Shown here: piece after piece, positions 1-640 of the stretch
Position numbering within the stretch: position 1 is the stretch's first letter
Layout: each line of letters starts with the position of its first letter
DNA from: Escherichia coli
GTDB lineage: Bacteria > Pseudomonadota > Gammaproteobacteria > Enterobacterales > Enterobacteriaceae
DNA length: 640 nt
Strand: one strand, 5' to 3'
Assembly (NCBI RefSeq): GCF_003334255.1
Contig: NZ_QOWU01000205.1
Program-made: the position numbers and the translations under genes
Notes under the pieces: generated by a model
Seen by the model: only the letters and a program-made list of their open reading frames with translations
What the model was told of the DNA's origin: nothing
Databases searched by the model: none

Positions 1-104
1 CGCCACCAGGGATTGCTCAGTTTAGTCATGATGAACAGACGTTGTTCGGTCCCGGTCATTTCTGACGGTTCATCACATCGCGGTTCATTCTTCCGGAATG
101 TCAT
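1..104 (-). CDS. N-terminal fragment of a downstream minus-strand gene running off the window at position 1; hypothetical protein. Window translation: MTFRKNEPRCDEPSEMTGTEQRLFIMTKLSNPWW...
   Basis: ATG at 104-102 (minus) is preceded by GGGGAG (plus 110-115, ctcccc) with a 5-nt spacer. The frame is open from 104 to position 1. The start lies 20 nt inside the 3' end of the upstream CDS in a different frame, consistent with translational coupling. In-frame ATGs at 59-57 and 29-27 lack a Shine-Dalgarno and are less likely starts. Too short in this window for any functional call. Confidence 0.45.
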   Translation of the reverse strand, partial: MTFRKNEPRCDEPSEMTGTEQRLFIMTKLSNPWW

Positions 105-640
105 CCAGTCTCCCCGAATTACTCATTTCATGCAGCGATGACACGATGTCACTGACTGGCGTAATAACCCCCCGGCGCTGGCTGGTCAGAATATCGGTTT
201 CCGCTCTGAGTTTATCTCTGGCGGCGTTGATTCTTTCCCGGTCAGCACGAAGTTTTGGTGCTGTTTCCGCCAGAACGTCCAGCGTCAGCAATGAGCGTTC
301 AATTGACTCGATACGGGCAATATTCCGGTCAAGGGCCTGTTCTGCTTTGAGTATTTTGTCGTACAGGGCAACACGGGTTTCCACGTCAGCCGCCTCTTTC
401 AGGTCGGCGAACATTTTTTTCAGTGTTCCTGTTACTGAAAGTGCGCGGGCCCGGGTGAACACCAGTTCATCGAACAGCACCATATCGGACGCATCATCCA
501 TGAGGTTATCTGCCTCAAGATACTTCGCATATCCACGGTGTCTCACGGCGTGGGTGTTACGGTCGCTAAACCGGGCAACGGGGTGAGGATTGCCCGATCT
601 GCTGTTGCGTTTCGTTTCTGCCGAATTTGCGCAGTTTTTT
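85..640 (-). CDS. Hypothetical charged helical (probable coiled-coil) protein, likely 5'-partial. The certain part is 85..546 (153 aa, stop TGA at 87-85). Product unknown; possibly a phage/mobile-element structural, scaffolding-like or coupling protein.
   Basis: Provided minus-strand ORF 85..546, re-translated by hand and matching the track. Composition is protein-like (heptad-like spacing of L/I/V/A between charged residues, acidic tail ...GRLDDIPEE), whereas the opposite-strand frame is Ser/Arg/Ala-rich like an antisense shadow. The track's start at 546-544 is GTG with no purine-rich Shine-Dalgarno upstream (minus strand AACACCCACGCC-GTG). The same frame stays open from 546 to 640 (KNCANSAETKRNSRSGNPHPVARFSDRNTHAV) with no ATG/GTG/TTG, so the gene probably starts beyond the window. 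Alternative internal start ATG 501-499 (GAGG 11 nt upstream) cannot be excluded. Confidence 0.7.
   Translation of the reverse strand, partial: KNCANSAETKRNSRSGNPHPVARFSDRNTHAVRHRGYAKYLEADNLMDDASDMVLFDELVFTRARALSVTGTLKKMFADLKEAADVETRVALYDKILKAEQALDRNIARIESIERSLLTLDVLAETAPKLRADRERINAARDKLRAETDILTSQRRGVITPVSDIVSSLHEMSNSGRLDDIPEE
110..115 (-). promoter_or_regulatory. Shine-Dalgarno-like ribosome-binding site (GGGGAG) for the downstream gene, embedded in the 3' coding sequence of the upstream gene
   Basis: Minus-strand sequence TCGGGGAGACTGGATG: GGGGAG, then 5-nt spacer ACTGG, then ATG at 104-102. It is the only strong purine-rich motif at canonical spacing from a start codon in the window. Confidence 0.4.

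Follow-up and report, generated by a model that had tools for sequence, protein, structure and literature searches.

A 20-nt terS/terL overlap with the terL ribosome-binding site inside terS in a 933W-type Escherichia coli prophage

In a stretch of 640 nucleotides (nt) of Escherichia coli DNA (contig NZ_QOWU01000205.1 of assembly GCF_003334255.1; hereafter the window, which means the whole stretch analysed), the genes of the small and the large terminase subunit, terS and terL, overlap by 20 nt in differing frames. The window is identified by its sequence as the terS/terL junction, on the minus strand, of a 933W-type (Sepvirinae-like) lambdoid E. coli prophage. We consider it likely that TerL is translated from the ATG at 104-102 via the Shine-Dalgarno sequence GGGGAG inside terS, and that TerL synthesis is likely tied to TerS synthesis. 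The 20-nt overlap and the ribosome-binding site within it are real and conserved, and genes for phage packaging ordinarily show such an arrangement. It is already known, having been annotated publicly since the 933W record and having close parallels in lambda and P22, and for 933W-type prophages the terL start given in public records is very probably correct.

The overlap and the terL start signal

The dual-coding overlap occupies positions 85-104 on the minus strand and comprises DDIPEE and the stop codon of terS (the first Asp codon in part) together with MTFRKN and two bases of a Glu codon of terL. The terL start codon (ATG, 102-104, minus strand) arises from two adjacent Asp codons of terS (gAT Gac) and precedes the terS stop by 17 nt; its Shine-Dalgarno sequence (GGGGAG, 110-115, minus strand) is contained in the Ser-Gly-Arg codons of terS (tcG GGG AGa), with a spacer of 5 nt (4-5 nt). 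The original prediction had given TGA 87-85, ATG 104-102, GGGGAG 115-110 and a 20-nt out-of-frame overlap, which proved exact on the minus-strand reading, and the two later ATG codons named there, Met-16 (59-57) and Met-26 (29-27), are in frame with ATG 104. Its description of the last seven terS codons, LDDIPEE, as co-encoded held for the six sense codons DDIPEE plus the stop; the Leu codon at 108-106 is not overlapped.

The window was found to be 100% identical to a prophage of E. coli UCPROB-002, 99% identical to the phages PhiR5_2 and PhiR12_3 and 91.5% identical to ~190 Shiga toxin (Stx)-converting phages of the 933W type. The 3' part of terS (85-640, minus strand; residues ~84-268 and the stop) belongs to an open reading frame that runs past the right end of the window, its start lying outside, and closes at TGA 87-85; the full gene (L001 3750-4556) encodes 268 residues. 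The 5' part of terL (1-104, minus strand) covers residues 1-34 and continues past the left window end, the full gene (L001 4537-6243) encoding 568 residues.

Both overlapping frames are genuine protein-coding genes, as seen from their matches in PHROGs and from homologues in many phages. TerS matched phrog_370 ('terminase small subunit', E 6.6e-119) over its full length (1-268), and TerL matched phrog_2 ('terminase large subunit', E 5e-52), which bore out the earlier guess of a phage morphogenesis module. TerS is a member of its family encoded directly upstream of terL, in the order terS-terL-portal. TerL combines an ATPase at the N-terminus, which has a Walker A motif, with an RNase-H-like nuclease at the C-terminus; the closest solved structure is that of the related T4 gp17 (nuclease domain, E 3.7e-8; ATPase domain, E 0.015). 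In the Walker A region, ILKARQLGFST, residues K73, A74, Q76, G78 and T81 were invariant in 23 homologues, and R75 and L77 nearly so. Searches with TerL revealed no Pfam-A match at E ≤ 0.001 and no NCBIfam match, and those with TerS no Pfam, NCBIfam or PDB match; TerL was recognised via PHROGs and distant PDB matches only, and not by the curated terminase profiles of Pfam and NCBIfam.

In RefSeq and GenBank records, the terL start is annotated exactly at the equivalent of ATG 104, both by the Prokaryotic Genome Annotation Pipeline (PGAP) and by the authors. Related phage and prophage records list a terS of 807 nt and a terL of 1707 nt, followed by the portal gene. The 933W record AF125520 contains the identical 20-nt overlap between L0112 (28775-29581) and L0113 (29562-31268); the upstream gene is named terS in P13374 and 'putative small subunit terminase' in 933W.

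The predicted pairing with the anti-Shine-Dalgarno sequence was -8.1 kcal/mol for ATG 104, compared with -0.6 for ATG 59 and +0.1 for ATG 29. For 22-mers of the locus, the background mean was -3.35 kcal/mol, 3.1% of them reaching -8. Over the 49 kilobases (kb) of the prophage, pairing of -8 or stronger was found at 2.6% of the ATG triplets (~0.46 per kb per strand), and the chance expectation of such an ATG signal in one frame of 30 nt is ~0.005. The terL pairing beats both the median annotated prophage start (-6.7) and the start of terS itself (-6.1). Between the upstream in-frame stop and Met-16, ATG 104 is the sole canonical start.

With regard to length, the annotated co-directional overlaps in the prophage measure 1, 4, 7, 8, 11, 17, 20, 41 and 89 nt, and that of terS/terL lies in the upper part of this range without being unique. 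Overlaps of more than 60 base pairs (bp) are generally misannotations (PMC2478687), and 20 nt is well below this mark. Two candidate arguments were set aside. Codon rarity around the Shine-Dalgarno sequence (GGG AGA) was dropped, the codons not being rare enough (AGA, 16 of the 120 Arg codons, and GGG, 21 of the 75 Gly codons, in terS, terL and the portal gene), and the length of the open frame was uninformative, 15-17 codons without a stop occurring by chance with a probability of ~0.44-0.49.

Conservation of the terL start

The comparative set comprised 93 loci with 36 distinct junction haplotypes, with one genome per species and IMG/VR scanned. TerL identity was 95-100% in the window type, 85% in the Citrobacter type (L014), 71% in the metagenomic locus L080, 70-73% in L078, L079 and L081, 68-70% in the Edwardsiella type and 54-67% in the Vibrio types. 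The TerS tail was homologous across the enterobacterial lineages (...L-H/Q-x-x-x-x-x-G-R/G-L/I-D/N...), and the comparison of the junction across related genomes, as proposed in the original prediction, revealed in every one of these lineages an in-frame terL start with a Shine-Dalgarno sequence at the homologous terS position, at the codon following L/I. This start is built from the third base(s) of a terS D, N, L or I codon and the next G or TGA.

The ATG, the Shine-Dalgarno sequence and an overlap of 20 nt are common to the window, Citrobacter and L080 types, and this combination was retained in 17 of the 17 junction haplotypes of these three closest lineages. Since strong anti-Shine-Dalgarno pairing is rare in the prophage and the arrangement is kept in all of these haplotypes, the overlap arrangement goes beyond chance. 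In the Edwardsiella type, the ATG stands behind GGGAGGG or GGGGAGGG and the overlap is 23 nt; overlaps of 4 nt are present in L078 and L079 (GTGA) and in L081 (ATGA), because terS is ~six codons shorter there. The upstream terL starts of the relatives reached -5.7 to -11.6 kcal/mol, compared with -2.2 to -4.1 for the equivalents of Met-16. The ATG comes immediately after an in-frame TAG in the Citrobacter type, which has no further start ahead of Met-16; the overlap is therefore forced in this lineage if the tail is translated.

In more distant relatives of this TerL, the gene overlaps its upstream neighbour by 4, 8 or 11 nt or is separated from it by 3 nt; a tight junction is thus characteristic of the family, its length being variable. 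For the most distant phages (L005, L008, L011 and L093), where automated start picking was unreliable for the upstream gene, the deposited annotation was used. In distant TerL proteins (30-54% identity), the conserved W-R-L motif is preceded by 12-50 residues, the corresponding number for the window TerL being 33 when counted from ATG 104 and only 8 when counted from ATG 29. A separate observation concerns L018 (Vibrio sp. MEBiC08052) and L093 (an IMG/VR contig), at 67% identity (~2384-2483), in which an open frame of 619 codons lies ahead of terL and stops 5 nt before the likely terL ATG, itself without a Shine-Dalgarno sequence; it seems that another gene, or a fused one, is present upstream.

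The terL-only tail (60-84, minus strand; residues 7/8-15) is single-coding and lies between the terS stop and the conserved Met-16. In codons 8-17, the Citrobacter type and L080 differ at 11 nt, 8 of which are third positions of the terL frame (2, 1 and 8 differences at the first, second and third codon position, respectively; binomial p = 0.009). The codon changes are 6 synonymous and 2 non-synonymous, and P-Q-Y-x-E-P-D-x-S-G is kept. Between the window type on the one hand and the Citrobacter and L080 types on the other, the tail differs in length by a frame-keeping indel of 6 nt. The stretch between the terS stop and Met-16 carries the signature of translated sequence, and the region 60-84 evolves as coding sequence in the downstream frame. 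The third-position bias and the in-frame indel argue against ATG 59 as the only start. Taken with the conservation of the start and with alternatives that have no Shine-Dalgarno sequence, this coding signature places the true downstream start upstream of the terS stop on comparative evidence.

Coupling to terS and competing readings

The terS/terL pair is placed in the late region/operon, where it follows the Q antiterminator gene and the lysis cassette. A scan of the window revealed no promoter-like and no terminator-like site, and Rfam at a permissive threshold gave no match in it, which fits co-transcription of the two genes, a reasonable assumption. Ribosomes on terS would cross the terL Shine-Dalgarno sequence and ATG and terminate 14-17 nt beyond, and TerL synthesis would most likely be linked to TerS synthesis in one of two ways. 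Either ribosomes that have just terminated may re-initiate, being pulled back by the strong Shine-Dalgarno sequence, or translation of terS may keep the terL site unfolded, with ribosome traffic setting how often it is free. Translational coupling itself is plausible; we infer both its existence and its mechanism.

Several observations speak against translation from ATG 104 or against its coupling to terS. Within the overlap, the window and Citrobacter types differ at 3 bases, all of which are third positions and synonymous in terS (DDIPEE is kept), and the same differences fall on second positions of terL and are non-synonymous (F3S, R4P and N6S); in this comparison, nothing within the overlap suggested that the protein sequence of TerL is constrained. 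In the E. coli set, TerL residues 7-19 change mostly non-synonymously (E7K, P8T, P13S, S14A, G18E and T19A). All ten enterobacterial lineages examined share Met-16, its neighbours varying, and tblastn alignments to the 68-73% relatives open at residues 14-16. As to coupling, the RNA of 96 nt and 200 nt around the junction folded no better than shuffles (z -0.39 and +0.54, respectively), and on this ground a model of coupling by the opening of RNA structure was dropped. Termination-reinitiation coupling has been demonstrated for distances of -8 to +10 nt, longer overlaps being rare (PMC10666635), and the 20-nt overlap falls outside this demonstrated range. A literature search turned up neither proteomic nor ribosome-profiling data on this TerL.

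The synonymous constraint in the overlap that had been suggested as a check gave no positive signal for the TerL frame; what supports ATG 104 are the start signals and the single-coding part of the tail. Judged from these substitutions, selection on the overlap acts mainly on the terS frame, the ATG and the Shine-Dalgarno sequence, the first TerL residues being nearly free to vary. In the E. coli set, position 86 is the only variable base of the overlap; depending on G or A at this site, terS ends in TGA or TAA, and the same change yields E7K in TerL. The 56 nt around the Shine-Dalgarno sequence, ATG and overlap contain 2 variable sites in this set, but extra conservation of the overlap was rejected as an argument, since the neighbouring 3' sequence of terS is similarly quiet.

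An AlphaFold2 model of TerL, computed with 23 homologues (mean predicted local distance difference test (pLDDT) score of 72), gave a pLDDT below 50 for residues 1-13 and a helix at 18-30. The tail made up of the first 13-17 TerL residues is poorly constrained and probably disordered, and the free variation of the first residues fits such a flexible N-terminal tail. The junction offers a clean example of dual-coding evolution: the first residues of the downstream protein drift, and the reading frame of the upstream gene is preserved together with the start codon and ribosome-binding site.

The conservation of Met-16 (ATG, 57-59, minus strand; Met in all enterobacterial lineages) and the points at which the alignments open would be accounted for if TerL began at ATG 59-57, 25 nt past the terS stop, and the overlap were an annotation artefact of a 5' extension. 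The poor conservation of residues 2-15, the first 13 of which are predicted to be disordered, points the same way, and long overlaps in annotations most often stem from mispredicted starts (PMC2478687, a study of overlaps above 60 bp). However, this ATG is without a Shine-Dalgarno sequence in any lineage, its pairing (-0.6 to -4.1 kcal/mol) being at or near background, and each lineage has a Shine-Dalgarno-led start upstream of Met-16, in frame and with no stops between. Re-initiation is moreover steeply distance-dependent and almost gone at ~20 nt or more downstream (PMC10666635), and the bias and indel in the tail (above) have to be explained as well. We regard Met-16 as the sole start as unlikely.

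Use of both ATG 104 and ATG 59, which would give full-length TerL and a tail-less form 15 residues shorter, is agreeable to the strict conservation of Met-16 despite a tail length that varies from 5 to 17 residues, and to a tail that is separable from the fold, the predicted helix opening at residue 18. The terminase genes 16 and 17 of T4 have been reported to yield more than one product. Against a second start stand the lack of a ribosome-binding signal at ATG 59 and the fact that a conserved Met may equally be structural, and we consider the use of both codons quite unlikely. Met-16 may serve a structural purpose or act as a minor start within the gene, and its role as sole start was ranked less likely than that of an additional one.

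A start at ATG 29-27 (Met-26; 27-29, minus strand), just ahead of the conserved NPWWRL motif, finds an echo in the many tblastn alignments to distant TerL proteins that open at residue 29. It is rejected, however, as Met-26 is Leu in L014 (Citrobacter type), L069 and L080, and thus in the relatives at 85% and 71% identity, and is located inside the predicted helix 18-30, within the conserved segment E-L-x-x-C-L-x-D-P-x-W-R-L of distant TerL proteins. It has no Shine-Dalgarno sequence (+0.1 kcal/mol, as above); the open reading frames of F116, Itty13, SopranoGao, Dimitile and vB_PalP_Y7 offer no start there, and the shortest homologues still begin five residues further upstream. The homologue alignment that had been called for to decide between the three ATG codons thus excluded Met-26 for practical purposes, and ATG 59 lacked a Shine-Dalgarno sequence in every lineage.

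A programmed frameshift yielding a TerS-TerL fusion, to which the two frames open over 85-104 and the action of both genes in one complex might point, can likewise be dismissed, as there is no X XXY YYZ slippery heptamer in ATGACATTCCGGAAGAATGA or just upstream, no stimulatory RNA structure of significance and no Rfam frameshift element, the terL frame has its own ATG and Shine-Dalgarno sequence, conserved in relatives, and in L014 it has a stop immediately upstream of the ATG.

The probable start of TerL at ATG 104 is useful knowledge for expressing this terminase or for predicting its N-terminus, and 933W-type prophages are widespread in E. coli, Shiga-toxin phages included; apart from correct annotation, the finding has little wider importance. 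If coupled synthesis or co-translational assembly were true, the junction would be a phage example at an overlap length where coupling is uncharacterised.

Genomic setting and known systems

Some further features of the locus were recorded. Downstream, terL and the portal gene overlap by 1 nt at L001 6243. Within terS, a hypervariable cassette of ~50 nt (window ~559-607, minus strand; TerS residues ~96-110) occurs in two very different alleles between nearly identical flanks: the window type, L054 and Citrobacter-like loci encode NSRSGNPHPVARFSD, and 933W and P13374 encode IRGSRLLPPSNAFSQ. The cassette looks like a small mosaic replacement inside the gene. Between the N-terminal region of TerS and the part in the window, there is a His/Asp-rich repeat (IDHEIDHKTDHEIDHD; L001 ~3885-3935), followed by an acidic stretch. 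Antisense to terS, an open reading frame of 162 residues (window 98-586, plus strand) is unannotated in all records inspected and is most simply a shadow of the coding strand.

In the UCPROB-002 prophage, the interval between Q and the lysis genes (L102 21251-24366), which is the stx site of Stx phages, contains an HsdM-family methyltransferase gene as well as HsdS (specificity subunit) genes, one of them a fragment. The 89-nt co-directional overlap annotated by PGAP between the DUF1378 and DUF826 genes (L102 27092-27602) looks like a mispredicted start. Two contigs of Xanthomonas pisi DSM 18956, L019 (745 nt) and L020 (1533 nt), encode parts of a TerL that shares 97-99% identity with that of the E. 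coli prophage and probably represent contamination of that assembly.

In the literature, 933W serves as a reference 'headful' terminase (PMC6029569); the search found nothing specific on experiments on the start of a 933W-type terminase or on its pac site. The genes L0112/L0113 of 933W, terS/terL of P13374, and those of VT2-Sakai and of Stx2-converting phage 86 are the same genes with the same junction as in the window. Over 150 nt around the start, 933W and the window differ at 4 positions, the annotated overlap of 20 nt being identical, and TerL of the short-tailed Stx phages is 96-100% identical to the window-type protein. The window differs from 933W in carrying the other allele of the terS cassette, and the UCPROB-002 prophage differs from the Stx phages in being without stx genes in the fetched region, where the methyltransferase gene is located.

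The junction resembles termination-reinitiation pairs of the ATGA and TGATG types in that the genes are unidirectional, encode subunits of a heteromeric complex and have the downstream initiation region inside the upstream gene (PMC10666635), and its close relatives use ATGA or GTGA overlaps of 4 nt. Unlike those coupled pairs, it has an overlap of 20 nt, beyond the -8 to +10 nt range, and its strong Shine-Dalgarno sequence could permit independent initiation.

Lambda, like the window, has a terS/terL pair overlapping in another frame, nu1 (191-736) and A (711-2636) sharing 26 nt, but its terminase is of the cos-cutting type, unrelated to the 933W headful type, and no sequence similarity was seen. 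P22, a headful lambdoid phage, has a terS/terL pair with a 23-nt overlap (gene 2 start, 203; gene 3 end, 225), but its TerL and TerS belong to a different family. In lambda, the C-terminal region of TerS binds TerL, and in P22, TerL residues 1-23 (within 1-58) bind the C-terminal TerS residues 140-162 (PMC9611059), so that in these phages the protein ends engaged in subunit contact are those specified at the junction. By analogy, the junction in the window would encode those ends of TerS and TerL that are likeliest to touch each other.

The terS/terL overlaps of ~20-26 nt (933W, 20; P22, 23; lambda, 26; Edwardsiella relatives, 23) might be read as a convergent device for ribosome handover and co-translational assembly rather than as compaction by accident, a view we think rather unlikely. 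933W, P22 and lambda represent three unrelated lambdoid terminase types, and the tails of TerS and TerL bind each other in lambda and P22. The ribosome ending terS would have its trailing edge on the terL start and would hand over to terL initiation; the C-terminal tail of TerS and the N-terminal tail of TerL would, by the same analogy, emerge adjacent to each other, allowing co-translational assembly of the holoenzyme, and the conserved Met-16, without a Shine-Dalgarno sequence, might add a tail-less TerL isoform.

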